This document shows positions 5,288 to 26,582 of a stretch of 53,751 nucleotides of DNA, piece by piece. Made by a program: the position numbers and the translations under genes. The notes under the pieces are model-generated. The model ran no database searches. It was given only the letters and a program-made list of their open reading frames with translations, and was not told the origin of the DNA. Source of the DNA: Candidatus Uhrbacteria bacterium RIFCSPLOWO2_01_FULL_47_17 (GTDB taxonomy: Bacteria > Patescibacteriota > Patescibacteriia > UBA9934 > GWF2-40-263); NCBI GenBank assembly GCA_001791305.1, contig MGEI01000003.1:182910-236660 (forward strand), written 5' to 3'. The number at the start of each line of letters is the position of its first letter. The stretch's first letter is position 1.

Positions 5288-5318
5288 ATTGGCGATATTG
5301 TAACACATCTCGCCCAGC

Positions 5319-5345
5319 GTCATCCTGAGCTCCTCGAGGGATCTC
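5319..5345. repeat. Half copy of GTCAT...GGATCT-type palindromic repeat
   Basis: gtcatcctgagctcctcgagggatctc resembles the left arm of the element at 49849-49935. Confidence 0.5.
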
Positions 5346-5382
5346 CGGACGGGTATTTGTCCAAAAAGACAACGCGAATCCA

Positions 5383-5411
5383 TTGACAAAATCTCGGATT
5401 CTTGGTAAGAA
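5383..5411 (+). promoter_or_regulatory. sigma70-like promoter of vWA-FHA operon
   Basis: TTGACA-17nt-TAAGAA; AGGAGG SD at 5427-5432. Confidence 0.5.
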
Positions 5412-5439
5412 ATTGTTGCCAATCATAGGAGGAACGGCA

Positions 5440-6771
5440 ATGGAAAACCCTATCGTTCATGACAAACCGGAAGTCAAGATTCGTATTTCGCTAGGTCAAC
5501 ATCCGATTCCGATCGTTCATGGAATGGTCGAAGCGGATGTCGTTTTGGAAATCACGCCGGTCATTCCGGAGCGGAATTCCGCCCCACTTGATGTCTGTGT
5601 GGTTGTGGACTGTTCTGGGTCCATGAATGGTGGCGCGAGTCACAACTCGCGCATCACAAAAATCGACGCGGTTCGCGAAGGTCTTGTGAATGTCGTTCGC
5701 AAGATGGGTCCGGAAGATCGCATTCGTGTGATCGGGTTTAGTGATGATGCCTTCGAGGTTTTGCCCTGGACAGTCATCGGACAAACGGAACTCGAGAAAG
5801 TCGTCGATCAGCTCGAGAAAGAACTTCACCATCGAGGCTCGACTCACTTCAAAGACGCACTCAACATGTCAATCGAGAACGGCCTCGGCGATCACGGATC
5901 GCCGCTCATCGTTCTGCTGACGGATGGTCAGAGTTCGAACCCGCAAGAGGATCACCGATTCATGGTTCAGTTCGTTGATGAGCTGCGCGGAAAAAAGATT
6001 CCGCTCATCATCTACGGAACGGGGCCTGATTACAACAAGAATCTGTTGGACCAGCTCGCCATTCGAGCAGGCAACGGATCTCTCATGTATCACGTCTTGT
6101 CGGTCGAAGATCTGGATGCGCATCTCACGGGAGAACTCGCGTTTCGTCATGGATTTTGTCTTGAGCGTGTGGAGATCTTGGTCTTCCATGCGCTTGCGCG
6201 ATTCACGGACGTCTACCGCTTCATCCCGCAAGAGCATCGCCTGCTCGAACGAAACCAGAACAATCGTGAGCACGGAGATGCTGGTTGCTACATTCTGAAA
6301 GATGGAAAAGGCTTCCAGAATTCCTGCGGATCGGTGGATCACCTGCGTGGACAGAAGTTTCTGTTTCGCATCACGGTACCCGCTCACGATTTCCAGGAAA
6401 CATCTTTGTTCAATATGGAGATCTCCGGCAATAAGCCGGGTGAACTTCCCTTCAAATACACCCTTCAGGTTCCGGCGTCCTGTACGCCCAACCTTTCCAC
6501 ACAACCCATTCATCCTGAAGTGACGAAGTACAAGCTGATGGTTGAGGCGACAAAAGCCATCAAAGAACGGCGGTATGAGGACGGCGTTCAGATCTACGAA
6601 CGCATGGGGCGTCCGGATCTGGCACAGACCCTCGTCCTTCTCTCTGAGAAGGGAGAGGACGAAGAGTCGACATCGCGCGGGACGCAGTCTTTCGCAAGTT
6701 CGGCATCCTCGGTCGTCCTTTCGCAGGAAGCAATCGACCGATACTTCAAGGAGCGTGGAGAAAACCCATGA
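5440..6771 (+). CDS. von Willebrand factor A domain protein (intact MIDAS)
   Basis: VVDCSGSM, GSTHF, LLTDG; start at MENPIV after AGGAGG. Confidence 0.9.
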   Translation: MENPIVHDKPEVKIRISLGQHPIPIVHGMVEADVVLEITPVIPERNSAPLDVCVVVDCSGSMNGGASHNSRITKIDAVREGLVNVVRKMGPEDRIRVIGFSDDAFEVLPWTVIGQTELEKVVDQLEKELHHRGSTHFKDALNMSIENGLGDHGSPLIVLLTDGQSSNPQEDHRFMVQFVDELRGKKIPLIIYGTGPDYNKNLLDQLAIRAGNGSLMYHVLSVEDLDAHLTGELAFRHGFCLERVEILVFHALARFTDVYRFIPQEHRLLERNQNNREHGDAGCYILKDGKGFQNSCGSVDHLRGQKFLFRITVPAHDFQETSLFNMEISGNKPGELPFKYTLQVPASCTPNLSTQPIHPEVTKYKLMVEATKAIKERRYEDGVQIYERMGRPDLAQTLVLLSEKGEDEESTSRGTQSFASSASSVVLSQEAIDRYFKERGENP

Positions 6772-7250
6772 ACGAACTCGCCCTTTTTGAACGAGAAGAA
6801 CTGATAAAGTTCAACAGCGGTCTCAAAATCCTCTACCTCGGCAATGAACGTATTCGCGTAAGCGAGACGTATGCGCAAGGATTCATGATCGGCTGGAAGC
6901 GTCTCGAAAGCGGCCCACCCATCCGGGTTGGTCGTGAAGACGCTCCGCCGGATGAGATGCACATTCATCCAGAAATCGATCTTTCCCCTGTCATGCCTGT
7001 GGCACAGCAAGGCTGCGTCTCGCGGCTGCATGCAGTCATCGAATGGCAAGACGGAAAGCCGATGCTTCGAACCTATTCCCGGAAATCCGGAACGTGGGTT
7101 CGCCGCAGCGGTGAAACGCGCAAGCGACTCCTCCAGCTCCATGAGTACCATGAGTTGAAGCATGGCGACATGATCCAACTTGGGCACCCAAGATCCATTT
7201 ATGTGCGCCTGCGGATTCAGTTCCTCGGAGCGCCGACAGACAACACCTAA
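6768..7250 (+). CDS. FHA domain protein
   Basis: IRVGR...VSRLHAVI...SGTWV...LKHGDMIQLG; ATGA overlap with vWA gene. Confidence 0.85.
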   Translation: MNELALFEREELIKFNSGLKILYLGNERIRVSETYAQGFMIGWKRLESGPPIRVGREDAPPDEMHIHPEIDLSPVMPVAQQGCVSRLHAVIEWQDGKPMLRTYSRKSGTWVRRSGETRKRLLQLHEYHELKHGDMIQLGHPRSIYVRLRIQFLGAPTDNT

Positions 7251-7317
7251 CCACTCGTTGCGAAAGCTCCGGGTGGATTTTTTTGCAACAAAAAAGACAC
7301 TCATGTGAGTGTCAGAG

Positions 7318-7920
7318 TTACGGAATCGTCATGCCGCTGCGGCCATCGATACCTGCGTCGGGCTCGGAATCATCCTCAAGAGCGCGATCATCACGTCCAA
7401 GCACATCGCGTTCATACTTGTTGTACCACGCATGAAATTCTGGTGTGTTGACTTGCATGGTGTATTTCCGATCGTCCGAAAGCTGAAAACAGATGAAGTT
7501 GTGGATCTGTCGGCTTTTCCCGAACGTTTCACGAACAAATGCTTCCGCCGAACGAAGCTGATCGATTGTATCAACGAACGAACACCCAGGATTCAGAGAT
7601 GGCGCAGAAACAAGCGCAATCTCGTTGATCGGCTTCATCTGAAGCGCGGAGCGGATCAGAATCATGGTATGTGCACGACATTCTTCATGATCTGCATCAG
7701 ATGTGATGTTGTGCAAGGAACAACCGCCCGTCGAAACACAAATAATGTGTGCGGGTGGAACTTGGGTATGAAATGAAATATCCGGATGCAGATTCGCAAG
7801 ATCTGTGACCACAAGCGTGTGCGAGAGATCGCAATCGAGCTTTGCTTCATGCAAAACCCGTTGTGCGTACAGAGACTCGATCAGAGCTTGATCTTCCGGA
7901 GAAAGCTGTGGGCGTATCAT
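7318..7920 (-). CDS. Degenerate beta-carbonic-anhydrase-like protein, paralog of 15277-15912
   Basis: Colinear similarity by eye to the 15277-15912 product; Zn ligands partly lost. GAGGAG SD; own promoter TTGACA-17-TAGTCT at 7963-7991. Confidence 0.55.
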   Translation of the reverse strand: MIRPQLSPEDQALIESLYAQRVLHEAKLDCDLSHTLVVTDLANLHPDISFHTQVPPAHIICVSTGGCSLHNITSDADHEECRAHTMILIRSALQMKPINEIALVSAPSLNPGCSFVDTIDQLRSAEAFVRETFGKSRQIHNFICFQLSDDRKYTMQVNTPEFHAWYNKYERDVLGRDDRALEDDSEPDAGIDGRSGMTIP

Positions 7921-8002
7921 GGAGACTCCTCGAATCGTCAAGAAATGAGTGACGATGGGGAGAGACTACGGTAAATAAGAGAAAATGTCAATGCGTGAAA
8001 CC

Positions 8003-8027
8003 AAAAACCGATCTTTAAAGATCGGTT
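8003..8027 (-). terminator. Intrinsic terminator after Ehr operon
   Basis: aaccgatctttaaagatcggtt hairpin followed by a T run on the minus strand; overlaps the stop codon. Confidence 0.6.
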
Positions 8028-9571
8028 CCGGAATAGCTGAGATCCAATGACTTATTACAAAGAGGAAAATCTGGAATGATGTTTCCTGGACCAATCGCTC
8101 CAAAGAGCGCCCAGTTGCAAAACGATGGATCGCGTGGGACACAGCGGGTGATGCGTCCATTCTCGACGTATACCGCAACGAGTGTTTCACCGCGCCATGC
8201 CTCTACGGCTCCAATTCCCATTCCGTCTTTCGCCTGCACCTCGACATGTGTTGCGCCCTCATTGTTCGAGGAACAAACGGCTTCGACAAGCTTCATGGAC
8301 TCAATCATTTCGAGCGCACGTAATTTCCAGCGCGCGTAGACATCGCCTTTCTCGAAGGTGAGAACTTCCGGCTTCATTTCGCCATACGCTGCATACGGAT
8401 GATCACGTCGAACATCACGATCGACGCCAGATCCTCGAGCTGAAAGACCGAGAGCGCCGAACGCGACCGCGACGTCTTTTGCGAGCACGCCAGTCGTTTC
8501 GAGACGCTCACGAAGTCCATCGCTGTGACGACCGAGTTCAAAGAGATCTTGCATTTCATCCACCACCTCTTTTGTTGTTTTTTGAATATCACGAAGTTCC
8601 TCGACAGACAGAGACTTAGAAACTCCGCCTGGCGCGATGTACCCTCGCCAAAAACGATTTCCGAATACACGTTCAGACAATCGCATCATTTTTTCTTTCA
8701 CACGGAATCCATGAGCTGCCATAACCGTAAATCCAGTTCCCATTCCAGCCATGTTCGCAATGTCATGCGTGTGCATAGTGATACGCTCAAGCTCGGTTAC
8801 GAGCACGCGCAACTGTTGTGCGCACTCAGGAACGTTTGTGTGCGAGAGATTCTCGAGGGCGAGTGCGTATGCGAGACTGAACGATGCGGACATGTCGCCC
8901 GAGATACGTTCAATATACGGGAGCGCCTCTTCGACCGTCTTTCCTTCCATCAACTTTTCAACCCCTTTATGTGTGAAAAACAATTTTCCTTCAAGGGTGA
9001 TTATGCGCTCACCAGCTACGTTAAAGCGAAAATGTCCAGGTTCAATAATACCGGCGTGAATCGGTCCAACAGGAATCTCGAAAATCCCCTCACCCTCGAT
9101 GTGGTGCATTGGGTAAGGTTCGTTTGCATGTTCCATCTTTGTATTCCACGCAAAGTCTTTACGAAGTGGGTGTGTGTTTTTTGGAACATTCTCATGGTGA
9201 ACCAAACGACGTGGATCCGGATGCCCCTCGGCTTTTATGCCAAACATATCCATCGCATAGCGCTCATACCAATGCGCTTCCATGATGGTTTTCGTGAGAG
9301 ACTCGTACGTTGGGTTTGCTTCGGGAAGTGATGTCTCAACAAGCAACCACTCATGCGATGCGTCGAGGGAAAACAAAACGTGCACACCAAATCCTTTTCC
9401 TTTTTTGCGATTATCTGTCGCGTACAATAAAGAAAGAGGAAGCTTGAACTCCAACGACAATCGATTGCACAAAAGCGTGAATGCATCTTGCGAAACTCGC
9501 TCGACCGTCACGAGCGATCCTTGCGTCGTGCCAGACAATTTTACGTTGTGAAGAATTTCTTGTGCGTTCAT
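8015..9571 (-). CDS. Ehr-type large subunit (HyfG/HycE-like, NuoC+NuoD fold) lacking NiFe-binding cysteines
   Basis: WYER, GHPDPRRL, PLRKDF, VGPIHAGIIEPGHFRF, HKGVEK. L1 site reads ERISGD (not RxCxxC); C-terminus DFPLCNKSLDLSYSGTDL (not DPCxxC). Confidence 0.92.
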   Translation of the reverse strand: MNAQEILHNVKLSGTTQGSLVTVERVSQDAFTLLCNRLSLEFKLPLSLLYATDNRKKGKGFGVHVLFSLDASHEWLLVETSLPEANPTYESLTKTIMEAHWYERYAMDMFGIKAEGHPDPRRLVHHENVPKNTHPLRKDFAWNTKMEHANEPYPMHHIEGEGIFEIPVGPIHAGIIEPGHFRFNVAGERIITLEGKLFFTHKGVEKLMEGKTVEEALPYIERISGDMSASFSLAYALALENLSHTNVPECAQQLRVLVTELERITMHTHDIANMAGMGTGFTVMAAHGFRVKEKMMRLSERVFGNRFWRGYIAPGGVSKSLSVEELRDIQKTTKEVVDEMQDLFELGRHSDGLRERLETTGVLAKDVAVAFGALGLSARGSGVDRDVRRDHPYAAYGEMKPEVLTFEKGDVYARWKLRALEMIESMKLVEAVCSSNNEGATHVEVQAKDGMGIGAVEAWRGETLVAVYVENGRITRCVPRDPSFCNWALFGAIGPGNIIPDFPLCNKSLDLSYSGTDL

Positions 9572-9572
9572 A

Positions 9573-11084
9573 TTAAATTGATTGTGAAATCAAGGTGAAG
9601 GCGTTCTGCACCGTCGGTGTAGTCACCAAAAGTCCGAGAAGAACAATCAGCACGATCTGCGTGATTACGACCGCGTGCGTGAGGGTGAATCGTTCCGTGT
9701 GATCAACAGATTCTTGTGTTCCTTCTTCGTCCACCGCATACAACATAATCATCGTGCTTTTCAACATACTGAAGGCAATCATGGAGAGCGCAAGAAGAAG
9801 GACGATCGTAAGCCATGGAACGGACAGTAATCCAGCACCCACAAGCATGAATTCACTTGTAAACAGACCAGACGGTGGAATGGCGATGATCGCAAGAATA
9901 CCGAGCGCAAACAACGTTGCGGTGATCGGTGCTTTCTTCATCAAGTTCTTCACACCACTTATCTTGGTTGTCTTTTGAGAAAGCAAAATTTCACCTGCCG
10001 TAAAAAACAAGGCGGATTTTGCGAGAGTGTGAAATACGGAGTGAATCGTGAGCGCGAGCATGCCGACAGGGCCGAGACCGGAAGCAAAGCCCATGAGACC
10101 CATGTGTTCAACACTCGAATACGCAAGCATGCGCTTATAATTTCTGGGCTGTAAGATAAAGAATGCGGCAACGACAACCGACAACAATCCGAATCCGATC
10201 ATTAAGTGATCCGTCCACGTAGAATCTCCGAGCGTGCTATCCGTAAGAATTTTGAAACGAAGGAGAACGAAAAAGGCAACGTTCAACAAAACTCCTGACA
10301 AAAGAGCACTCACAGGAGATGGCGTTTTACTGTGTGCGTCTGGAAGCCATGTATGCATTGGGACAAAACCAACTTTTGTTCCAATTCCTACTAAAATGAA
10401 TACGAATGCCAATTTAACAGCGTCTACAGGAAACAACCCAGTTTGCTCACGCAACGATGCATAGGAAAATGCTTTGAAAACATCGAGTCCAGATTCAAGG
10501 CCCGCATGCACCATCATGAGAAGTCCAATCATGCTGATTCCAATTCCAACGGAACACAGAATGATAAATTTCCAGGCCGCCTCGATAGACGCGTCTTTTC
10601 TGTAAAGCGCGACAAGCAATGTTGTGGTGAGGGTTGTTCCTTCAAGCGCAATCCACAAAACTCCAAGATGATCTGCAAAGACGGCGATCAACATGGACAA
10701 AATAAAGAGAGGGACGCAGAAAAAATACAAACGAACCTTGTCGAGCGTCAATAGATGCTCGCGTGATTCTTCGCCAATGTAACGCACGCTTGCGATGATT
10801 GCGGTGAGGTAAGTAAACGAGATGAGTGCAACCATGAACCAGACATAATAGCTACTCGCACGCAACCAATCGAGATTCATACGATCCGCATAAAACCAAT
10901 TTGCCGCAAAAGGCACATTCCATCCGTAACGAAATGCTCCGGAAAGAAAAACAGCAGAAAGAAGGAGAAACGCACCGCTACCGAGCACCGCAAAAAAGAG
11001 CGCGCTCATGCGGATTTGTTTTTCTGTGCGTGCAAGGAATGCACTCGCCGCCGCGAAAAGAAAAATGTTGAGAAAAATAAACAT
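9573..11084 (-). CDS. HyfF-like proton-translocating antiporter subunit
   Basis: WIALEGTT, EAAWKF, GTKVGFVPMHTWLPDAHSKTPSPVSALLSG, KRMLAYSSVEH. Confidence 0.92.
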   Translation of the reverse strand: MFIFLNIFLFAAASAFLARTEKQIRMSALFFAVLGSGAFLLLSAVFLSGAFRYGWNVPFAANWFYADRMNLDWLRASSYYVWFMVALISFTYLTAIIASVRYIGEESREHLLTLDKVRLYFFCVPLFILSMLIAVFADHLGVLWIALEGTTLTTTLLVALYRKDASIEAAWKFIILCSVGIGISMIGLLMMVHAGLESGLDVFKAFSYASLREQTGLFPVDAVKLAFVFILVGIGTKVGFVPMHTWLPDAHSKTPSPVSALLSGVLLNVAFFVLLRFKILTDSTLGDSTWTDHLMIGFGLLSVVVAAFFILQPRNYKRMLAYSSVEHMGLMGFASGLGPVGMLALTIHSVFHTLAKSALFFTAGEILLSQKTTKISGVKNLMKKAPITATLFALGILAIIAIPPSGLFTSEFMLVGAGLLSVPWLTIVLLLALSMIAFSMLKSTMIMLYAVDEEGTQESVDHTERFTLTHAVVITQIVLIVLLGLLVTTPTVQNAFTLISQSI

Positions 11085-11085
11085 A

Positions 11086-11715
11086 TTATTCCGTGAGCTC
11101 AGTTAAAGATTCGGTATCCCCTGTTGCGTAGAGCTCTTGGACATGACGGCTTAAAACTGCCATGAGGACGGCTCCGGTAATGACCACGAACAAAATTCCT
11201 GTTTCAATCATGAACGGAAAACCGCCAATCATGAGAACACCATACGCAGCAATTCCATTTTCCATGGTCATAAAACCAATGATCTGGGAATACAAATCTT
11301 TACGCACGATCATGAACATGAGTCCAAGCAATACAAGCGCAATAGAAAGATATGGAGCTCCAGGCATCTTCATCGAAACAAAAACGGAGACGAGCAAAAT
11401 AAGCAAAGCGACAAAATACGTTGCGGTCGGACGCAAATAGAACTTCAGCGCCATTGATGCATGTACTTTCTTTGCGGCGAACATGAGGATCAGCGGAGCA
11501 AGAATCACCTTAAAAAACACGTTGATTGCCGCAATGGTGTATGGCTGTTCTTCGCCGTGCATGAGAGAAGACGTCACAATGAGTCCCGCAAGACAGAGCG
11601 AAGAAAGCGCAAAATAACGCAACATCGCAGGAAGACGCGGCTTCCCCATCATGACGATCGCAAACAAAAGCGTACCGCCCATGAAAACATTATTCCAAAG
11701 AGAAAGGGTAATCAT
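11086..11715 (-). CDS. HyfE-like membrane subunit
   Basis: Multi-TM; FKVILAP, SQIIGFMTMENG, PFMIE; position in operon. Confidence 0.88.
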   Translation of the reverse strand: MITLSLWNNVFMGGTLLFAIVMMGKPRLPAMLRYFALSSLCLAGLIVTSSLMHGEEQPYTIAAINVFFKVILAPLILMFAAKKVHASMALKFYLRPTATYFVALLILLVSVFVSMKMPGAPYLSIALVLLGLMFMIVRKDLYSQIIGFMTMENGIAAYGVLMIGGFPFMIETGILFVVITGAVLMAVLSRHVQELYATGDTESLTELTE

Positions 11716-12647
11716 AGTGTGATGTGAATGAGGGCAAAGACAAGACCGGCAAGCGCAAAGAAGAAGGCGATCGTGAGATACTCTTGCATGCGATAAAAAC
11801 GCATTTTGGCGATCATGGATTCAAGAAGCGCAAGCAAAAATGAAACGATAACCACTTTTATGATCATCCAACCAAGGGCCATAATGATCGCAATAAGTGT
11901 TGCATCAACCGCAAGCGTCATGGGAAACAAAACGTTTGCAACAAGTAACGAGAAAATGGTGAGTTTCAGTCCAGAAGCATATTCGAGCATCGCAAGATAA
12001 GGACCGGAATACTCAAGAACCATCGCTTCATGAACCATGGTGAGCTCAAGGTGAGTTGCTGGATTGTCGACGGGGTAACGCGCATTTTCTGCAAGCGCAA
12101 TCATGATTAGGGCGGCGATTGCGGGAAGAAGAGCGGGTGATGTCAAAATGTTTGCGCTTGCAAACATGGTATCAACCGTGAATGCGCCTGTAACAACGGC
12201 AAAGGTTGCAAATGTTGCGATCATGGCTGGTTCCACGAGCGAGGCAAGGGTCATTTCACGCGATGCGCCCATTCCACCAAACGCACTCGCACTTTCAAGT
12301 CCGCCCATCACAAGAAATGCGGTGCCGAGGGCAAGAACGCCCGCGATGATCATGAAGTGACCAAGATGTGAGAGAGCTCCACCGAAGACCACGAGCGGCA
12401 AAACGCAGACGAGAAACAGTGTGCTTGCAAGAACCACAAATGGGACTAAACGAAAAACCCATGAAGTGCTTTTCGAAATAACCATTTGTTTTTTCAGAAG
12501 AGTCGCGTACGTAATGTACGGCAAAAACGGAGAAGCTCCGTGACGACCTTGCAAACGCGCTTTGAACAGGCGAACGAGCCCAACAACAAATGGCGCAATC
12601 GCAAGTGTGGCAACAAATTGAACGAGAGTTAAGAGAATGGAATTCAT
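11712..12647 (-). CDS. HyfC/NuoH-like membrane subunit
   Basis: KARLQGRHG, FGGMGASRE, AENARYPVDNPATHLELTMVHEAMVLEYSG. Confidence 0.93.
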   Translation of the reverse strand: MNSILLTLVQFVATLAIAPFVVGLVRLFKARLQGRHGASPFLPYITYATLLKKQMVISKSTSWVFRLVPFVVLASTLFLVCVLPLVVFGGALSHLGHFMIIAGVLALGTAFLVMGGLESASAFGGMGASREMTLASLVEPAMIATFATFAVVTGAFTVDTMFASANILTSPALLPAIAALIMIALAENARYPVDNPATHLELTMVHEAMVLEYSGPYLAMLEYASGLKLTIFSLLVANVLFPMTLAVDATLIAIIMALGWMIIKVVIVSFLLALLESMIAKMRFYRMQEYLTIAFFFALAGLVFALIHITL

Positions 12648-14626
12648 AGGGCGATCGTCAAAGTAACAACGAGAGCGATGAAGATGAGGGCAATGTAGAA
12701 TTGAATCACTCCGTTTTGGAGCTTACGAACTTGTGTGGAAGTCCAAAGGCACGCGTGTTGAATAGGAACATACAAAACGTCGTACCAGATTTGACGCAGA
12801 TCAAGGGAAAATATTCGTGAAGCGATCCAAGGATTACTCGCAAGCACTGGTGTTGCGATCACGTTCTTTTTTGTTCGTGTGATCATGCGAAAAAAGAATC
12901 GAATCGGAGAAGAGAATGCGGTTGCCGTATATTCCATTCCGGATGTAATCGGCTGTCCGCAGTCCCATGTGTGATAGGGGCGCTCGTGTTTTTTATTTGA
13001 GAGCAGTCTTCGAGCAACGAAGACAACGAGAAACAACGCAATCAACACATCAAATAAGACGAGAGGATTCAGTGTCGCTTCTGCCACAACAAGATTTGTG
13101 TGCCATGTTTCAAAAGAAGTCAGATCGGCAAATCCAATGATACTCAAGATCCAAGGTGCACATGCACCAACGAAAATCGTAAGTGCAGCGAGTGCAAAGA
13201 TAGGAACGGCAATCAATGCATCCGGAGCTTTTGCGTGTGCTGCATGTTCTGAGCGAGGTTCGGCGAGAAAACCGATTCCGAACAATTTAATCATGGCAAA
13301 CAGGGCGAGACCTCCAACAAGAGCCATGGTGACAAGAACCAAAACGAGAACACCTTGGATAAATGGCGACATCTGGGACAGATTCGCAACGAGATTCTGA
13401 ATGAATGTCCATTCCGCCATGAATGCGGAGAATGGTGGAAGAGCGGCAGCGGCAAGGGCAAGAATAAGCATGGAGCCAGAAAAAACTGGCATGCGCTTCG
13501 AGAACCCGCCCATAACCTCGAGACTTCGAGAATGTGCGGCGTGAACCATCACACCAGCACCCATAAATAATCCGGACTTAAAAAAGGCATGTGCAATAGC
13601 AAATAACAACGCCGCACCAATCGCGACGTGTGCAAAGGTGTCCATGCCTTGTGATTTTACGAGCATGGCAACACCGATCATAGTGAAAATAATTCCCATG
13701 TTCTCAATACTACTGAACGCAAGAACACGTTTTACATCACGCTCGATCACCGCATAAATCACTCCGTAAACAGCCGAAAGGAGTCCGAGTGCGATAACGA
13801 TGAGAGCCTCGGTTGAACTTCTGATTGGAAGGACGGAGAACGTCATCACTAAGAATCCGTACAATGCCATTTTTAACATCACTCCAGACATGAGAGCAGA
13901 AATATGTGATGGAGCTTGCGGGTGGGCTTCTGGCAACCAAACATGAAACGGGACAAGTCCTGCTTTTGAACCAAACCCAAACAGAAACAATAAAAACACC
14001 CCAAACAATGTTTGTGGCGGTAAGCTTTGCGCAAGAACGGCAAGACGTGTGAAAGGTTCAAAAATAGATGAACCCGAAAGGATGAGGAATCCAGCAAGAA
14101 TCGCCCCTGCCCCAAGATGCGTCATGATGAGATAAAAAAGGGCGGCGCGAACGGATGCTGCTTGCTTATCAGCCATCACAAGAAAAAAGGAAGAAATGGA
14201 CATCACTTCCCAAAACACAAGAAATCCAAATGGAGCGGAGGAAAGAAGTACCCCTTGCATCCCAAGGACGAAGATCGCCATGAGACCGTCGAGAACGCGG
14301 ACGTTATAAATTTCTGCATATTGCTCGACATATTTGATCGCGTACACAGATGCGAGACATGCGACGGTATTGAGGAGGAAAAAGAAAAGGGCGGAAAGGG
14401 TGGAAAGGGCGAAAGGTGTACTAAAAAACCAGACAGATTGAGAAATGGCGAGTTGAGATTGACCACTGAGCAAAAATACCGCGCTCGCAATAGCACCTAG
14501 TCCTGTTGAGAGTGCTAGAAGTGTCATGACAGCCCGATGCCCCTGCCCTTTTGCGCTGATACACGAGACGAGCGCGGCGAGCAATGTGCCTGCAAGGGAT
14601 AACAAGACAAAAAACGAAAAATTCAT
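12644..14626 (-). CDS. HyfB/NuoL-like proton-translocating antiporter subunit
   Basis: FWEVMS, KAGLVPFHVWLPEAHPQAPSHISALMSGVMLK, KRVLAFSSIEN, WDCG, MEYTATAFS; start at MNFSFF. Confidence 0.93.
   Translation of the reverse strand: MNFSFFVLLSLAGTLLAALVSCISAKGQGHRAVMTLLALSTGLGAIASAVFLLSGQSQLAISQSVWFFSTPFALSTLSALFFFLLNTVACLASVYAIKYVEQYAEIYNVRVLDGLMAIFVLGMQGVLLSSAPFGFLVFWEVMSISSFFLVMADKQAASVRAALFYLIMTHLGAGAILAGFLILSGSSIFEPFTRLAVLAQSLPPQTLFGVFLLFLFGFGSKAGLVPFHVWLPEAHPQAPSHISALMSGVMLKMALYGFLVMTFSVLPIRSSTEALIVIALGLLSAVYGVIYAVIERDVKRVLAFSSIENMGIIFTMIGVAMLVKSQGMDTFAHVAIGAALLFAIAHAFFKSGLFMGAGVMVHAAHSRSLEVMGGFSKRMPVFSGSMLILALAAAALPPFSAFMAEWTFIQNLVANLSQMSPFIQGVLVLVLVTMALVGGLALFAMIKLFGIGFLAEPRSEHAAHAKAPDALIAVPIFALAALTIFVGACAPWILSIIGFADLTSFETWHTNLVVAEATLNPLVLFDVLIALFLVVFVARRLLSNKKHERPYHTWDCGQPITSGMEYTATAFSSPIRFFFRMITRTKKNVIATPVLASNPWIASRIFSLDLRQIWYDVLYVPIQHACLWTSTQVRKLQNGVIQFYIALIFIALVVTLTIAL
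14388..14414. repeat. Three 9-nt tandem units inside the hyfB-like CDS
   Basis: agggcggaa-agggtggaa-agggcgaaa; encodes FALSTLSAL. Confidence 0.6.
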
Positions 14627-14630
14627 AAAA

Positions 14631-15167
14631 TTACTTTGAGGATGATTGTTTGAGTGCATTCAACACGCCGCGGAGAATCTGTGTTGGTGTTGGAGGGTCT
14701 CCTGGAATTTTGATGTGAACTGGAATGACCTTGTCGAGAGCACCGACAACAGCATAAGAATCTTTCCAGATTCCGCCCGTGCAAGCTCCGTCACCAATCG
14801 CCACAACGATACATGGTTCTGGTGCGGCTTCGTAAGTTGTTCGAACGGCCCTCTCGAGATTACGCGTAACAGGACCCGTAACCCAGACCATGTCTGCGTG
14901 ACGAGGCGACGCAACGAAACTCAAACCAAAACGATCAATATCATAATAGGCATTGTTGAGGGCTGTGAGTTCAATTTCTTCGGCGTTTGTGGATCCGCCA
15001 TCAACGGCACGAATGCGAAGAGATCTTCCTCCGTAGAGATTGATTACGATCGATTTTAATTCTGCGCCAACTGTTTCAAATTCCTCATCTGTCTTTAAAA
15101 AAGATTCTTGTTTTTCGGTGACCCGGGGCCCAAGAAAAAGCCGATTCAGCAATTTTGGAAAGCTCAT
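14631..15167 (-). CDS. Ehr small subunit (HyfI/NuoB-like) with degenerate Fe-S ligands
   Basis: RSLRIRAVDGGSTNAEEIE, YDIDRFG, VASPRHAD, VTGPVT, AIGDGACTGG, IPGDPPTP; start at MSFPKL. Confidence 0.9.
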   Translation of the reverse strand: MSFPKLLNRLFLGPRVTEKQESFLKTDEEFETVGAELKSIVINLYGGRSLRIRAVDGGSTNAEEIELTALNNAYYDIDRFGLSFVASPRHADMVWVTGPVTRNLERAVRTTYEAAPEPCIVVAIGDGACTGGIWKDSYAVVGALDKVIPVHIKIPGDPPTPTQILRGVLNALKQSSSK

Positions 15168-15189
15168 AAGAAGATAAGTGAACCAGAAT

Positions 15190-15218
15190 AATTTACTCTT
15201 GAGAGACAACCGAGTCAA
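15190..15218 (-). promoter_or_regulatory. sigma70-like promoter of Ehr operon
   Basis: TTGACT-17nt-TAAATT on the minus strand. Confidence 0.6.
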
Positions 15219-15276
15219 GCATTTTTTTACACAGGATAAATAAAAAAACCGGGGGGCGAATCCGGTCAGAGGAGGT

Positions 15277-15912
15277 CTATGAAGTGGCAGGTGTCGTCGG
15301 TTCGAATTCGATTTTTTGATCAGAATCAGAGCCATTCTTCTTGTTCATGTGCTTCACGTACTGTTCCCCATTGTTCTCGCGAAACCACTGTTCGAAGGCA
15401 ACACGACTGAGAAAGTACGTTCGTTTTTTTTCGTTCGCATAATCCACATGGATGTAGCAACTGATACGGTCTTTCGGCCACCTGGCTTTGACGCGTTTCT
15501 TTGCTTCAACCACGTGATAGAGAACTTCAACCACGTTCAATCCTTCAAGCTGCGCCGCCCCACATGGTGCATGCACAAACAGAATGATCGTGTTGATATC
15601 CTTCAAGTTGCGGGCGATTCCAATGTGCTTCAACAGATACCGATCGATGTTGTATTCACGATCAAGTGGGCACGCTTCAGAAATGAGCATGCCTCCACCG
15701 TGCTGCTTGAGCGAGTGCAAACGAACTTTGCCTCCCGACTCATCAAGGATACGATGAACGTGGCCATCGATGTCCGCCGCTTGATCGCAGTCGGGACAAA
15801 CAACGGGGATCACACCATTCGGCGCGTCGAGCTTGTGGCCAACAACATCGACAAGAACATGGGCGTCACGCAACATGCGAATGAAACGGACATCTTCTGC
15901 AAGATTTGGCAT
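15277..15912 (-). CDS. Putative beta-class carbonic anhydrase-like Zn protein
   Basis: VVCPD ... HGGG ... INTIILFVHAPCGA gives the CxD and HxxC Zn-ligand pattern of the beta-CA fold. Confidence 0.6.
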   Translation of the reverse strand: MPNLAEDVRFIRMLRDAHVLVDVVGHKLDAPNGVIPVVCPDCDQAADIDGHVHRILDESGGKVRLHSLKQHGGGMLISEACPLDREYNIDRYLLKHIGIARNLKDINTIILFVHAPCGAAQLEGLNVVEVLYHVVEAKKRVKARWPKDRISCYIHVDYANEKKRTYFLSRVAFEQWFRENNGEQYVKHMNKKNGSDSDQKIEFEPTTPATS

Positions 15913-15976: not shown

Positions 15977-16005
15977 ATGATACCTCCAAATGGGCTTTGC
16001 GTCAA
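15977..16005 (-). promoter_or_regulatory. sigma70-like promoter of CA-like gene
   Basis: TTGACG-17nt-TATCAT on the minus strand. Confidence 0.65.
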
Positions 16006-16048: not shown

Positions 16049-16474
16049 CTAATTTTTGTGTGACTTTCTGCGCTTAATGGCAACGTGGTATCGTGCCAGT
16101 TCTCTTTCGAGGTGAACCGCCGCATCTGCAAACGCAACATCATCTTTATGCCGTGTTTCCGTAAGGAATTTGCGTGCGCGTTCTTTCGCCTCCTCAATCT
16201 TCTCGAGTTCGAGTTCCTCGGCACGCTCGGCGGTGTCCGCAAGGATCACAACTTGATTCCCTGGGCGCACCTCGAGAAACCCAGTGGACGCAACAAGATG
16301 TGACTCTTCTCCATTTTTTTTCAAACGAACTTCCCCTGCACGCAAATTGGAAACGAGTGGAACGTGATTCGGCAAAATCGTGACTTCACCCGTTTCTGTC
16401 ATGAGCGTAACCGAATCAACCGTGTCTTCATAAACGATTCGCTCAGGAGTTACGATTTTGAGAAAAATGGGCAT
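16049..16474 (-). CDS. atpC: F1 ATP synthase epsilon subunit
   Basis: IVTPER, GEVTILPNH, GFLEV, ILADTAE. Confidence 0.96.
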   Translation of the reverse strand: MPIFLKIVTPERIVYEDTVDSVTLMTETGEVTILPNHVPLVSNLRAGEVRLKKNGEESHLVASTGFLEVRPGNQVVILADTAERAEELELEKIEEAKERARKFLTETRHKDDVAFADAAVHLERELARYHVAIKRRKSHKN

Positions 16475-16477
16475 AAA

Positions 16478-18785
<2,308 letters not shown>

Positions 18786-18788
18786 AAG

Positions 18789-20291
18789 TTATTTCCATTG
18801 TTCGTTAAATCCTGTGATTGCTTCTTTAAGTGACGCAACAATTTCATCTGTAAGTGCCTTCTCTTCTCGAAGATTCTTCATAACTTCTGCTCCAACAGAA
18901 TTCATGTATGCACGAAACTCTGTTTCCCATCGAACAACTTGATCAATCGAAATTGCATTCAAGAATCCGTTTGTAACGGAAAAAATCACCACAACTTGTT
19001 CCTCAAACGGCAACGGTTGATATTGTAATTGCTTGAGCAACTCTGTTGTTCGGCGTCCAAGTTCAATTTGTGCGCGTGTTCCCGCGTCGAGGTCGGTCGC
19101 AAATTGTGCGAACGCTTCGAGCTCGCGGAATTGCGCGAGGTCGAGACGCAACTTTCCAGCTACTTTCTTCATGGCTTTTGTTTGCGCGGCGGATCCGACA
19201 CGAGAAACAGAGAGACCAACGTTGAGCGCTGGACGAATTCCGCGGTAGAACAAATCGCTCTCGAGATAAATCTGTCCGTCAGTGATTGAGATCACGTTTG
19301 TTGGAATGTAGGCAGAGACATCACCCGCTTGTGTCTCGATAATTGGCAACGCAGTGAGTGATCCTCCTCCGTTCTCTTCATTCAAACGCGCAGCGCGCTC
19401 AAGAAGTCTCGAGTGAAGATAAAAAACGTCTCCAGGATACGCCTCGCGTCCTGGTGGACGGCGGAGCAAGAGCGAGATTTCGCGGTACGCCCATGCGTGC
19501 TTCGACAAATCATCATACACAACGAGTGCATCTTCGCCCTTTGCCATGAAGTATTCTCCGATCGTGCATCCCGTATATGGTGCGATGTACGAAAGAGCGG
19601 CCGGATCGGATGCACCCGCGACAACGACGGTTGTGTATTCCATTGCGCCAGCTTCCTCAAGCTTTGCAACAATCTTTGCGATCTTCGATTCTTTCTGACC
19701 AATTGCAACGTAAATACATTTCACTCCTTGGCCTTTTTGGTTGATGATTGTGTCGACCGCAATCGCTGTTTTTCCAACCTGGCGATCCCCAATAATGAGC
19801 TCACGTTGTCCGCGACCAATTGGGATAAGCGCGTCGATCGCTTTAATTCCCGTTTGAAGTGGAACACCAACGGATTTACGTGTCATCACACCTGGCGCGA
19901 CTTTTTCGATTGGAAAAAACTTGGAAGCACGAAACGCTCCTTTGCCATCGATGGGATTTCCGAGTGGATCTACAACACGCCCAACAATCTCGTCGGATAC
20001 AGGAACAGAGAGAATACGTCCGAGAGCGCGTACGGTATCCCCTTCTTTAATCTTCGTTGTGTCGCCGAGAATAACGGCACCCACCGTATCTTCTTCGAGG
20101 TTGAGAACCACACCAAAGACTCCGCCAGGAAATTCAAGCATTTCGGACGACTTGGCATTCGAGAGTCCGCTCATGCGGGCGGTTCCATCAGAAACAGAGA
20201 GAACGGTTCCGACTTGTTCTTCTGACGTGCTTGTTTGAAATGTTTCGAGCGACTTTTTCAACGCTTCGACGATATCAGTTTTTGTGTTCAT
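18789..20291 (-). CDS. atpA: F1 ATP synthase alpha subunit
   Basis: [28 protein letters not shown]; start at MNTKTD. Confidence 0.99.
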
Positions 20292-20295
20292 ACAG

Positions 20296-20679
20296 TTATT
20301 TCGATAACGAAACGGTGAGTTGTTCAAGCGCGCCTTTCAAAGATCCGTCGATGATGCGCTCATCGATGCGAAGTTTTGCGCCGCCGATGAGTGAAGGATC
20401 GATGACTTCTCGAACTTCCGCGCCAGCCGCGAGCTTCGTAAGAGCATCCTTCATCGTTTTAGTAAGCGGATGAGCAGTCTCAATCGTAAGCGTGCTCAAT
20501 CCGTGCTTTTCTTTCCAGATTTGGTCAATCGATCGAACAACATCCTTCAGCTTCTTGAGCTCACCTCGCGCGTGAAGCCATGTAATCAGTTCTGTTGCAG
20601 CCTCTTCGAGATGCTTCTGTGAAGCGCCTTCGACAGACTCGACAAACAGGCGTGCTAATTGTTTAGGAGAAACGTTCAT
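20296..20679 (-). CDS. atpH: ATP synthase delta subunit (short form)
   Basis: [29 protein letters not shown]; between atpF and atpA. Confidence 0.9.
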
Positions 20680-20683
20680 ACGC

Positions 20684-21190
20684 CTAGGACATTTTTTGAA
20701 TAACTTCAGAGGCAATCTTGTGTGATGCTTTCTCATCTACTTCTGATTCGAGAATCTTTTTTGTTGCGGCAACAGCCATTCCAATCAACTCAGCTTTTGC
20801 TTCGTGAAGCATCTGTGCCTTCTCAGCCTGAAGCTGTTCTTTGCCTTGCATCACGACACGTTCAACTTCTTTTTTTGCCGCTGCAAGTAATTCTTGCTTA
20901 CGAACATCCGCATCTGCTTTCGCTGTTTCAAGAATCTGCAATGCCTCTCCCTTTGCAGTGGCAATAATTTGTTTTTGTTCAACTTCAAGCTGTTTCACGC
21001 GAACTTCAACGGCGTCTGATTGCTTCAGACTCTCTTCAATCTTGTTTGATCGATCATCCAAAATTTTAACAAGGGGCTTATAGGCAAATTTCCAAAGCAC
21101 CAACAACACGATCACGAAGTTCACGAGTTGGGCAATAAAAATATTCAAATTGATTCCAAGGGTCGCAATTCCGCCAGTTGGTTCGGACAT
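20684..21190 (-). CDS. atpF: Fo b subunit
   Basis: LGIN...QLVNF...KFAYKPL...R..KI, then coiled coil; start at MSEPTG. Confidence 0.95.
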   Translation of the reverse strand: MSEPTGGIATLGINLNIFIAQLVNFVIVLLVLWKFAYKPLVKILDDRSNKIEESLKQSDAVEVRVKQLEVEQKQIIATAKGEALQILETAKADADVRKQELLAAAKKEVERVVMQGKEQLQAEKAQMLHEAKAELIGMAVAATKKILESEVDEKASHKIASEVIQKMS

Positions 21191-21278
21191 AAAAGAAAAG
21201 TGAAAGAGTGAAAAACTTACATAAACAACAATCCACGTTGATCGTCGACCTGCTCGACAATCATGCGTTGCGTGTCGT

Positions 21279-21506
<228 letters not shown>

Positions 21507-21510
21507 TTAT

Positions 21511-21535
21511 GTAGGGGTGCCCCTTGTGGGTACCC
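21511..21535 (+). repeat. GTAG-type REP element
   Basis: GTAG-GGGTGCCC-cttgt-GGGTACCC; related copy at 36155-36179. Confidence 0.7.
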
Positions 21536-21613
21536 TATAAGTGAGTAAGTTATTTCATCTTCGCGATGAACGTTGATCTTCGAGGAGTCTCGACCATCAA
21601 CACCCTGCGCGAA

Positions 21614-22450
21614 CTAGGCATGGGCATTCGCATGACTCTCAACATGTTCCTCTTCATGTTCCTCGTGTGAAGTTGTCGCGACCGTGAGATAAGCGAGGGT
21701 TAACATGGCAAACACGGTTGCTTGAATGACACCGACAAGAATTTCAAGAAACAAAAACGGAATTGGAAGAAAAAATGAGAAGAGTCCGATCATAACCGAA
21801 AGGAGAACTTCACCTGCAAACACATTTCCAAACAAACGAAGAGAGAGTGAAAGAACTTTCGCGAGCTCACTCACGATTTCGAGAAGACCAACACCAAACT
21901 CGATGACAGCGACCATGATGGCCATCGGACCTTTCTTGAGCGATCGCCAAATACCACGAATGTTCACGAATTTACTAAAGTGATTCACAATCCCAACAGA
22001 TCGAAGTCCGATAAAATGGGATGTAAGAACGGCGAACGCAGCAATCGCGAGCGTTAAATTTAAATCGGATGCGGCAGAACGAAAGAATGGGATGAGTTCT
22101 TTCTCACCGTTATGGATTCCCCATACACCGATCGAACCGACACCAGGAAACAAACCGATCCAGTTTGAAAACAAAACGAACAAGAAAATGGTTCCGACAA
22201 TAGGTAAAAATTGTCTGGAGCGTTTTGCGTCACCCGTCACTTTTTGAACTTCCGCAAGCATGAACTCAACAAGTCCTTCTGCGATGTTACGCAAACCTTT
22301 TGGAACACGCGTTTGTTTTCGGTTCAAAAGAATCGCAATCACCACAAAAAAAACAACAGCAACCCAGCTGTTGATGATGGCATTTGTAACAGAAAGCCCC
22401 CCAAGGTGGAAAACCGTTTCGGCAGCTGCGGGAGGAATCGAAAATTGCAT
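21614..22450 (-). CDS. atpB: Fo a subunit
   Basis: SNWIGLFPG, SLSLRLFGNVFAGE, IQATVF; His/Glu-rich C-terminal tail. Confidence 0.97.
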   Translation of the reverse strand: MQFSIPPAAAETVFHLGGLSVTNAIINSWVAVVFFVVIAILLNRKQTRVPKGLRNIAEGLVEFMLAEVQKVTGDAKRSRQFLPIVGTIFLFVLFSNWIGLFPGVGSIGVWGIHNGEKELIPFFRSAASDLNLTLAIAAFAVLTSHFIGLRSVGIVNHFSKFVNIRGIWRSLKKGPMAIMVAVIEFGVGLLEIVSELAKVLSLSLRLFGNVFAGEVLLSVMIGLFSFFLPIPFLFLEILVGVIQATVFAMLTLAYLTVATTSHEEHEEEHVESHANAHA

Positions 22451-22453
22451 AAT

Positions 22454-22693
22454 CTACTTTTTATTTAACGCTTCGTACTCATTTCCATACTTCTTTGCCT
22501 TTCTCACAACGATCCACGCTGTGGATAACAGAGCGATCGAGAGAGAAAACACTAGGAATTTTGGCGCTGTGTGATATTTACCATCCAACCATTTTCCAAC
22601 CAACGCTCCCAAAACCGCCGGAACCGCAATAGATCCGCTAAAATCTGCAAAAATTCGGAGGGCAAGGCGATAATAGGCAGCTTCGATATTCAT
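22454..22693 (-). CDS. AtpZ/AtpI-family two-TM protein
   Basis: IAVPAVLGALVGKWLDGKY.T.P; first gene of atp operon; TTGACC-17-TACACT upstream. Confidence 0.8.
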   Translation of the reverse strand: MNIEAAYYRLALRIFADFSGSIAVPAVLGALVGKWLDGKYHTAPKFLVFSLSIALLSTAWIVVRKAKKYGNEYEALNKK

Positions 22694-22827
22694 AAAAGAC
22701 GCCGGTAGTGTATCGGTTTTTGAAAAAGAGGTCAATCGTTTTTTTCAATTGACCCAAAGGAAATGCTATGATAGCCTCGTACCTTCGATACGCTTAGTAT
22801 TGAAGGTCCAATTTTGTGAGGAGAATC

Positions 22828-24633: not shown

Positions 24634-24718
24634 AGACAATCCTTTCCGATCAATCACATGATCGGTTTTTTTATTGCCACAAAAAAACCGACCCATGAGG
24701 ATCAGTTGAGAGCTTAGC

Positions 24719-26350: not shown

Positions 26351-26582
26351 GAACTTCTCCTTGGTTGAGGTAGACACCCTCTAGCACCGTGCTAGAGCTG
26401 GAAAAACCAGAGATGGAGATTACCAACATTTATGATAATTGTCAATGTATTTTGACATCTGTTGATAAATGATGACAAAAAAACAAAACTGGCGCACTAA
26501 ATCGCGCTATTTTGTAAATACTTTTTCTTGACATTTTTTAATTTTCATGCTAATTTTACGGGTCCATTTTACGGAGGAAGCC

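Follow-up and report, generated by a model that had tools for sequence, protein, structure and literature searches.

An Ehr-type complex lacking redox-cofactor ligands, linked to ATP synthase and carbonic-anhydrase-like genes, in a Candidatus Uhrbacteria genome

The stretch analysed here, 53,751 nucleotides of contig MGEI01000003.1 from Candidatus Uhrbacteria bacterium RIFCSPLOWO2_01_FULL_47_17 (hereafter the window), encodes a membrane complex of the Ehr type that has lost every ligand of the NiFe site and of the proximal [4Fe-4S] cluster, yet is as constrained as an essential enzyme. Its six genes are bracketed by two genes for paralogous proteins with a predicted beta-carbonic anhydrase (beta-CA) fold, here called ORF211 and ORF207, and a complete F1Fo ATP synthase operon lies directly upstream on the same strand. 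Drawing on sequence, structure models and analogy, we propose that the complex and the two flanking proteins may form a non-redox, proton-gradient-coupled, vectorial converter of CO2 and bicarbonate that works in the direction of the DAB systems; we put the probability of this reading at roughly 0.42. To our knowledge, Ehr complexes are widespread and have had no function assigned to them since they were named. A cofactor-less variant would mean that processes other than electron transfer can drive the complex-I scaffold or be driven by it; how local chemistry is coupled to distant proton channels in complex-I-type machines is still debated. The recurrent pairing with carbonic anhydrase (CA) and ATP synthase genes names a concrete candidate for the coupling chemistry of Ehr, and bears on the proton circuit, pH and inorganic carbon handling of the ultra-small, non-respiring bacteria of the Candidate Phyla Radiation (CPR).

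The host genome (Patescibacteria; 1,070,576 bases in 5 contigs, 99.8% complete) carries the six Ehr-type genes tightly packed on the minus strand, at 8015-15167 of the window, with gaps of -29, -4, -4, +1 and +1 bases between them. In 5' to 3' order, followed by the two flanking genes, they are:

14631..15167, minus strand: EhrS, NuoB/HycG-like small subunit of 178 amino acids (PF01058, E 4e-23)
12644..14659, minus strand: HyfB/HycC/NuoL-like antiporter-type subunit of 671 amino acids (PF00361; NF005086, hydrogenase 4 subunit B, E 9e-152)
11712..12647, minus strand: HyfC/HycD/NuoH-like subunit of 311 amino acids (PF00146)
11086..11715, minus strand: HyfE-like small membrane subunit with a NuoK-like C-terminus (PF00420; NF008556, hydrogenase 4 membrane subunit, E 1e-18)
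9573..11084, minus strand: HyfF/NuoN/M-like antiporter-type subunit of 503 amino acids (PF00361; NF005045, hydrogenase 4 subunit F, E 3e-105)
8015..9571, minus strand: EhrL, fused NuoC-NuoD/HycE-like large subunit (PF00329 and PF00346)
15277..15912, minus strand: ORF211, unannotated protein with a predicted beta-CA fold and a zinc-site pattern
7318..7941, minus strand: ORF207, paralogue of ORF211 without the zinc ligands (predicted fold, hhalign), with its likely start at M8, position 7920

Pfam recognised in the six operon genes only PF01058, PF00361 (twice), PF00146, PF00420 and the pair PF00329+PF00346, and together with NCBIfam it defines a membrane set of two antiporter-like subunits, one NuoH-like and one HyfE-like subunit, with no NuoI-like one. 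EhrS is the only PF01058 gene in the whole genome, and its closest homologues carry the source names Candidatus Uhrbacteria or Patescibacteria. An earlier reading of this DNA from its letters alone (the sequence-only reading) had described all six frames as open, which they are, and the motifs it quoted were all recovered in place on the minus strand.

We set the cluster-ligand positions of EhrS by alignment to MbhJ (6cfw_J), HycG (7z0s_G) and bovine PSST (5lc5_B). The motifs of EhrS read GSTNAEEIE, GDGACTGG and IPGDPP: GSTNAE takes the place of GSCNGC (T60 and E63), PGDPP that of PGCPP (D157), and the invariant third cluster ligand, within G-x-C-A, aligns to G127. None of the four [4Fe-4S] ligands is left, T60, E63, G127 and D157 standing at their positions, and EhrS is not a four-cysteine small subunit of the kind typical of most Ehr members. 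The sequence-only reading had reported three replaced cysteines; the loss stands and the count rises to four, since the cysteine of GDGAC is C129, at a non-ligand position, and the third ligand position is G127. C129 lies two residues past that position, at a site that canonical relatives fill with C, I, R, V or A and 12/59 members of the query's own clade with I, and the conserved cysteine that EhrS keeps is C119. The replacement residues are polar or acidic (T/S/D, E, G/D and D/N) in both cysteine-less clades described below, as those of a carboxylate-lined metal or ligand site, one option raised in the sequence-only reading, might be. A start at 15335 was rejected: the mechanically called frame, 14631-15335, runs 56 codons further upstream and overlaps ORF211, and homologues of 174-182 amino acids favour the start at 15167. 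Separately, two distant cysteine-less relatives of the small subunit, P0254 and P0225, carry an N-terminal extension with a ferredoxin-like C-x-x-C-x-x-C motif fused to the NuoB-like domain.

The large subunit has lost its metal site just as completely. EhrL carries the motifs ERISGDM and DFPLCNKSLDLSYSGTDL (C-terminal part DLSYSGTDL), and in its alignment to E. coli HycE (7z0s_E, E 1e-57) RVCGIC corresponds to RISGDM and DPCYSC to DLSYSG. None of the four NiFe cysteines remains, as had been noticed from the letters, and both CxxC NiFe motifs are gone, as in Ehr large subunits; the conserved cysteines that EhrL keeps are C477 and C485. Of the 74 related loci whose large subunit could be read, all but three (L017, L020 and L079) share the S-G-D / S-Y-S-G signature. 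HypD (PF01924) was not found in the 99.8%-complete genome. The complex is therefore no group 4 [NiFe] hydrogenase, which would have four NiFe cysteines and Hyp maturation genes.

No redox partners were found either. Pfam found no NuoI/HyfH-like gene among the six operon genes, in agreement with the sequence-only reading, and the locus holds no NuoI-like, NuoE/F/G-like or formate-dehydrogenase-like gene. Beyond the operon, PF00037 and PF12838 had no match in the whole genome, and both matched in 14/14 control genomes. A host unable to make Fe-S clusters was considered as an explanation and rejected: SufBD was not found in the genome, but radical-SAM genes were, along with neighbouring genes for NifU_N and a cysteine desulfurase (NifU/NifS-like). 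The organism can therefore make Fe-S clusters, and the ligand loss is specific to the Ehr complex. With no cluster ligands, no Fer4 domains in the genome, a single PF01058 gene and an operon of six genes, the complex does not qualify as complex I (NDH-1) either. Since neither NiFe nor proximal [4Fe-4S] binding appears to be left and no ferredoxin-like subunit is encoded, the complex is presumably not an electron-transfer enzyme, and we infer from sequence that it is a non-redox machine. The earlier suggestion of a non-redox function thus gains from the missing ligands, the missing ferredoxin-like subunit and the missing HypD.

The substitutions are widely shared and strongly maintained. As closest homologues we took the best 120 of 7830 EhrS matches, at 73-94% identity. 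Among these, position 63 is E in 120/120, and at position 60, 103 have T, 10 have S, 3 each have N or C and one has A. The motif GDGAC is kept in 117 and [IV]PGDPP in 110. Similarly, 59/61 metagenome EhrS copies lack the ligands, with the pattern TEGD at the four positions in 44 and TEGN, NEGD, SEGD, TEGE or CEGN in the rest. We computed the ratio of nonsynonymous to synonymous substitution rates (dN/dS) by the pairwise Nei-Gojobori method, as medians over pairs with dS of 0.05-1.5. It was 0.108 for EhrS (85 pairs), 0.120 for EhrL (17), 0.110 for the HyfC-like (56), 0.099 for the HyfB-like (19), 0.072 for the HyfF-like (23) and 0.110 for the HyfE-like subunit (35). The cap subunits EhrS and EhrL, with mean column identities of 70-78% (70% for EhrL over 13 clade members), are as constrained as the membrane arm, and strong purifying selection acts on both alike. 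Lineage-private substitutions under relaxed selection, an outcome that the sequence-only reading had named as fatal to its own idea, are not what we found: the substitutions extend across the clade, and the EhrS ratio is low.

The proton channels of the membrane arm are intact. The HyfB-like subunit has E151 in transmembrane helix (TM) 5, K232 in TM7, K263 in TM8, H357 and K361; the HyfF-like subunit has E148, K237, H352 and K356, with N268 at the TM8 position, a family-wide trait and not a local defect. These residues are invariant in the subclade (45/45 HyfB-like and 42/42 HyfF-like sequences, with one or two exceptions at single sites), and all Ehr groups examined conserve them fully or almost fully. 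The antiporter Glu and Lys residues had been called intact in both subunits, and this held, with N268 as the family's own variant. The NuoH-like subunit matches HycD (7z0s_D, E 4e-28) over its full length and keeps GASRE, VEP and the loop motif EYSG; the HyfB-like subunit aligns with HycC (7z0s_C, E 3e-52) and has a C-terminal extension that resembles HycC's. Overall, E. coli formate hydrogenlyase (FHL)/hydrogenase-4 (7z0s) is the best solved match for 4/5 subunits searched, EhrS matching MbhJ (6cfw_J) best and HycG second. FHL shares with the window's complex the fused NuoC-NuoD large subunit and the HycC-like extension, but it has a NiFe site, the HycG cluster, the ferredoxin-like subunit HycF and the partners HycB and FdhF, none of which the window's complex has.

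To place the complex among its relatives, we scanned one genome per species, which gave 80 loci, and built a quick LG+G4 tree of 75 large subunits, with no true hydrogenase outgroup save L079. A four-cysteine small subunit accompanies 52/75 rows, which bears out the earlier statement that this subunit normally keeps its [4Fe-4S] ligands; the other 23 rows lack them. The four-cysteine rows come from Pseudomonadota, Verrucomicrobiota, Bacillota, Thermoproteota and Nitrososphaerota, mostly with the gene order B-C-E-F-G-S. The window's EhrL falls among Ehr-type sequences, inside a CPR clade of 15 rows (SH-aLRT 86) within an Ehr-type group of 34 rows (97). The cysteine-less CPR clade has the order S-B-C-E-F-G and the ligand-position patterns TEGD, SEGD, TCDD, DCDD and TEGN, and the query sits in a subclade of four rows (100) within it. 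A second cysteine-less clade has 7 rows (100), from Methanosarcina, Methanoregulaceae, Dehalococcoidia and Moduliflexus, with the pattern D-T/P/A-D-N; its loci (L026, L027, L031, L034, L035, L038, L040 and L060) also include Methanomicrobiales and have the order B-C-E-F-G-S. The free tree separates the CPR clade from this methanogen/Dehalococcoidia clade and makes the latter sister to four-cysteine archaeal sequences; an approximately unbiased test did not reject a single clade of all cysteine-less rows (p 0.117), a group that was named after seeing the tree. From these sequences, the cluster would have been lost once or twice. An odd row is L079 (Melainabacteria), on the longest branch of the tree, whose large subunit has all four NiFe cysteines and whose small subunit was aligned as C-E-G-N; the alignment may be at fault here, or L079 may be a genuine hydrogenase whose small subunit is unusual.

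Within Patescibacteria, 20/401 sampled genomes matched at E <=1e-5, 11 of them strongly, the window's own genome included. This agrees with the patchy CPR distribution of Ehr given in the accessible part of Jaffe et al. 2020 (PMC7304191). The same part of that paper describes the CPR Ehr clade as monophyletic, with a large subunit lacking the metal-binding cysteines, and the window's complex has the same subunit set and the same large-subunit signature. Measured against Ehr in general, where most sampled loci have four cysteines, the window's clade differs in having none, in its small-subunit-first order and in its linkage to ATP synthase and CA-like genes.

That linkage, which the sequence-only reading overlooked together with both flanking genes, begins with ORF211 and ORF207. 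Neither has a Pfam or NCBIfam match, ORF211 giving only a chance hit to DUF7560 at E <=10, and all 13 clusters of the ORF211 family are named 'hypothetical protein'. An AlphaFold2 model of ORF211 (pLDDT 82, from an alignment of 8 sequences) returned beta-CAs for all of its best 40 Foldseek matches (E 8e-5 to 1e-3, probability 0.94-1.00). In the VIA comparison its best 50 matches all belong to the beta-CA family (beta-CA, COS hydrolase or CS2 hydrolase), with Z of 9.9-11.8 and, for the top rows, a root-mean-square deviation of 2.6-3.2 A over 115-131 residues. The sequence carries C39-x-D41 ... H114-x-P-C117, and C39, D41, H114 and C117 are invariant in 21/21 members; judging by the motif spacing, these are the putative zinc-site residues. 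Position 43, the place of the Arg in the Asp-Arg dyad of beta-CAs, is D in 19/21 members, H in 1 and N in 1.

ORF207 is weakly similar to ORF211 by BLASTP alone (E 0.084), and the two families align by hhalign with a probability of 97.7% (E 2e-12, 178 columns). Its AlphaFold2 model (pLDDT 80) likewise has only beta-CA family members among its best 50 VIA matches (Z 8.8-10.6). In the profile alignment with ORF211, it has T-D in place of C-x-D and S in place of H, and it is likely a non-catalytic paralogue. ORF207 is present in 5/7 same-genus genomes; in one relative it follows atpC directly, in the slot of ORF211, and a second relative has it as the tandem neighbour of an ORF211-like gene. Profile comparison with known CA-like families was not significant by hhalign, either for the ORF211 family against the CsoSCA-like and Pro_CA_2-like families (probability 0.2% and 2.4%) or for ORF207 against the CsoSCA-like family (0.3%). 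Since sequence profiles gave nothing, the CA assignment of both proteins rests on their predicted folds and the ligand motif. The nearest named ESM Atlas clusters of ORF211 carry PF20393 (Pro_CA_2), which we take as a lead only.

The same two slots, before ehrS and after ehrL, hold other CA-like genes in the relatives: CsoSCA-like genes (PF20686) in 12 loci by BLAST clustering, gamma-CA-like genes for left-handed beta-helices in 5 loci (best NCBIfam matches the CcmM gamma-CA domain, E 1e-39 to 1e-49, and Cam-type carbonic anhydrase), Pro_CA_2-like genes (PF20393) in 3 loci, and ORF211-like genes. A CA-like neighbour is found in 19/39 small-subunit-first loci with both flanks readable and, by hand count, in 17/26 of those in the query's subclade, loci that are not independent of one another and include the near-duplicates L145/L147, L158/L159 and L025/L155/L156. 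Given these near-duplicates, what does count as independent is that at least four CA-like families are involved, which share no detectable sequence similarity with one another. In the other CPR subclade (SEGD and TCDD types), only L028 has a CA neighbour.

Outside the CPR clade the picture is more scattered. A canonical Pro_CA gene (E ~1e-49) lies ~1.3 kb upstream, on the other strand, in 2/8 loci of the methanogen/Dehalococcoidia clade. In the four-cysteine locus L047 (480-11115, a Pseudomonadota metagenome-assembled genome), a SulP transporter gene (Sulfate_transp) precedes the operon and a CsoSCA-like gene comes immediately after that of the small subunit; the four-cysteine locus L052 (927-3077, Rhodocyclaceae) has a SulP gene with a STAS domain. 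No CA family was found at E <=1e-10 among 78 flanking ORFs of 30 four-cysteine loci. The SulP and CsoSCA-like neighbours hint that an inorganic-carbon link is not confined to the cysteine-less forms of Ehr.

The second recurrent neighbour is ATP synthase. Of the 29 related metagenome loci that extend 3 kb or more upstream of ehrS, 22 have atpD-atpC there, at a distance of 17-2963 bases, and the same arrangement occurs in the species-genome loci L024, L041 and L042. In the window, the relevant features are:

16049..22735, minus strand: F1Fo ATP synthase operon of nine ORFs (atpI-like, a, c, b, delta, alpha, gamma, beta, epsilon; Pfam)
21279-21497: ATP synthase c subunit
16040-16018, minus strand: terminator-like hairpin just 3' of atpC, a consensus match only
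15977..16005, minus strand: promoter-like site TTGACG-17-TATCAT (10/12) between atpC and ORF211, a consensus match only
7296..7313, minus strand: terminator-like hairpin followed by TTTTTT directly 3' of ORF207, a consensus match only

Because the terminator- and promoter-like sites part atpC from ORF211 and a hairpin follows ORF207, the apparent transcription unit comprises ORF211, the six ehr genes and ORF207; the promoter- and terminator-like matches around it are no more numerous than in shuffled sequence. The sequencing runs listed for this stretch were all of DNA, from groundwater and soil. The c subunit lacks the Gln/Ser/Thr residues that we take to mark Na+-binding c rings, and because these are missing, the ATPase is likely proton-coupled.

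In the reading that we prefer, protons passing through the HyfB-, HyfF- and HyfC-like channels would be coupled, by way of the cofactor-less EhrS/EhrL cap, to the carbonic anhydrase. CO2 hydration would thereby be given a direction, much as DabAB(C) and the cyanobacterial NDH-1/CupA system do, and the proton gradient would be supplied by the co-encoded ATPase in a fermenter that does not respire. ORF211, with its zinc site, and the degenerate ORF207 may act as a pair with one active site, much as CsoSCA's two domains do. The converter's product would be used to keep pH or bicarbonate steady or be exchanged with a host, and would not go into carbon fixation. That the CA proteins physically associate with the complex, that they are coupled to it, and in which direction and to what physiological end, is what we infer from the gene linkage, the predicted folds and the conserved residues.

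Known systems offer partial models for this proposal. CsoSCA, the carboxysome shell beta-carbonic anhydrase, has one active and one degenerate domain. ORF211 and ORF207 total 418 amino acids and occupy the slots in which relatives have single CsoSCA-like genes of 340-403 amino acids; they differ from CsoSCA in being separate genes at opposite ends of the operon, with no significant profile similarity to the CsoSCA-like family. Cyanobacterial NDH-1 draws its power from electrons that pass from ferredoxin to plastoquinone by way of intact Fe-S clusters, and its CupA is not a beta-CA, whereas the window's complex has no redox input. What the two share, as far as the available text on NDH-1MS/MS' with CupA/CupB goes (PMC13684180), is a complex-I-type machine in which directional CO2 hydration would be tied to a proton-pumping arm. 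The same text describes the DAB1 structure as a beta-CA fold coupled to a NuoL homologue. DAB therefore resembles the window's locus in that a beta-CA-fold protein is genetically tied to a NuoL-type proton-translocating subunit without redox chemistry. Unlike the window's complex, it is there given one antiporter-like subunit and no NuoB/NuoD/NuoH-like module, and it serves carboxysomal CO2 fixation (PMC13684180), whereas no RuBisCO large-subunit gene was found in the window's genome. ORF211 is not recognisable as a DabA: it has no Pfam match, and it is set apart from DabA by profile search only.

Several points weigh against a CO2/bicarbonate converter. The coupling is suggested by gene neighbourhood and predicted folds. 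In DAB and NDH-1/CupA, moreover, the CA sits on an antiporter-like subunit, and neither analogy explains a conserved NuoB/NuoCD-like cap. No recognisable CA neighbour is present in 9/26 subclade loci, nor in 11/13 small-subunit-first loci on genome contigs with both flanks readable (10/11 of the cysteine-less CPR ones). ORF211 lacks the dyad Arg and matches no CA profile by sequence, and the beta-CA fold also occurs in COS and CS2 hydrolases, so the substrate is uncertain. The genome yielded no RuBisCO large subunit, no PF02786 (ATP-grasp carboxylase/carbamoyl-phosphate synthase) and no canonical Pro_CA. With the first two not found, there is no obvious consumer of concentrated bicarbonate, and a carbon-concentrating role for CO2 fixation is disfavoured.

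A simpler explanation, which we consider rather unlikely, is a plain secondary ion translocator, either an Mrp-like antiporter or a proton-leak regulator, that serves pH or sodium homeostasis, keeps its cap as a structural or regulatory remnant and has CAs nearby that buffer pH independently. Like Mrp antiporters, the complex has PF00361 antiporter-type and NuoK-like subunits and no redox cofactors. Two antiporter-type subunits with intact Glu/Lys/His channels would suit such a role, linkage to ATP synthase suits any component of a proton circuit, and the subclade loci without a CA neighbour fit it well. The operon departs from Mrp, however, in its NuoH-like subunit and its large NuoB/NuoCD-like cytoplasmic cap, and MrpE/F/G-type families are absent from its six genes and the two flanking ORFs (only these were scanned). 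Two single-gene PF00999 Na+/H+ exchangers are already present in the genome, and the cap is at least as constrained as the membrane subunits. In addition, CA families with no detectable sequence similarity have entered the same slot again and again, which is hard to explain without a functional tie. The specific proposal of the sequence-only reading, an Mrp-like cation/H+ antiporter with a regulatory cap, finds no particular support, given the missing MrpE/F/G genes, the two exchangers and the conserved cap. The machine could also run in reverse, with CO2 hydration by the attached CA drawing on a CO2/bicarbonate disequilibrium (from a CO2-producing host or CO2-rich groundwater), pushing protons out and feeding the ATP synthase. 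The gene order of ATP synthase, CA-like gene and Ehr would suit this, as would the proton circuit that the c subunit, without the Na+-site residues, makes likely; no respiratory or ferredoxin-linked source of proton-motive force and no bicarbonate-consuming enzymes were found. We nevertheless judge the reverse direction decidedly unlikely, for the free energy of near-equilibrium CO2 hydration is very small, no exit route for bicarbonate was identified, neither experiment nor precedent supports such a pump, and direction is not readable from sequence.

A complex that is still redox-active, through an unrecognised cofactor or a partner encoded elsewhere, such as a metal bound by the carboxylates of E63 and D157 or, in the pocket that once held NiFe, a flavin or a ligand of the quinone type, seems very improbable. 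It would make sense of the polar and acidic replacements in both cysteine-less clades, and of the Ser and Asp that the former NiFe pocket keeps in all Ehr types (R-I/V-S-G-D and L-S-Y-S-G-x-D). The absence of Fer4 domains from the genome and of NuoI-, NuoE/F/G- or formate-dehydrogenase-like genes from the locus speaks against it, as do the one or two conserved cysteines per cap subunit (C119 in EhrS; C477 and C485 in EhrL). Scarcely credible is a decaying hydrogenase relic without present function: the loss of all catalytic ligands and the patchy distribution in Patescibacteria (20/401 genomes, 11 strong) would be expected of one, but the selection data contradict it. The frames are open and translationally packed, dN/dS is 0.07-0.12, the channel residues are invariant, and homologues run to thousands, the best 120 of 7830 being 73-94% identical.

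Returning to the CO2/bicarbonate converter, a bolder version of it, which we think unlikely, would have the CA pair dock on the EhrS/EhrL cap. The charges of CO2 and bicarbonate would then replace quinone or proton reduction as the trigger of the E-channel and the antiporters, with E63 and D157 in a proton relay. Run forward, such a machine could enable an epibiont that does not respire to turn a CO2 disequilibrium created by its host into proton-motive force for the adjacent ATP synthase. If true, this would be the first complex-I-type energy converter with an acid-base instead of a redox coupling site.

The Ehr name (Marreiros et al. 2013) and the Geobacter designations EhrA-D/L/S are used here as in citing papers (PMC7894505, PMC6349859). 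What seems to be in print are Ehr complexes as such and the CPR Ehr clade without NiFe ligands, and nothing was found on complete loss of the small-subunit cluster, the ATP synthase link or the CA link. This literature search met no mention of Ehr small-subunit ligand loss, an Ehr-CA linkage or an Ehr-ATP synthase linkage in the text available to it; Marreiros et al. 2013 and Fig. S6b of Jaffe et al. 2020 lay outside its scope and could hold the small-subunit loss. New for the window are the two paralogous beta-CA-fold genes bracketing the operon and the fact that no bicarbonate-consuming enzymes were found; the second cysteine-less clade, in methanogens and Dehalococcoidia, is a further new detail.

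The wider neighbourhood holds several other genes. A UvrD-type helicase of 1029 amino acids, apparently fused to a nuclease-like C-terminal part, is encoded at 2333-5422 on the minus strand. Because UvrD-helicase genes also follow the Ehr operon in L023 (with a PD-(D/E)XK domain), L111, L113, L114, L133, L143 and L166, the subclade shows synteny here. At 5383-7250, on the plus strand between the helicase gene and ORF207, lie genes for a VWA-domain protein (462 amino acids) and then an FHA-domain protein (160 amino acids). On the far side of the ATP synthase operon, two large convergent ORFs at 22816-26377 encode proteins of 605 (plus strand) and 552 (minus strand) amino acids, both with low-complexity tails rich in Pro, Ala and Glu; they lie partly in the most GC-rich 2-kb stretch of the window (0.55 at 24001-26000, against ~0.46 elsewhere).

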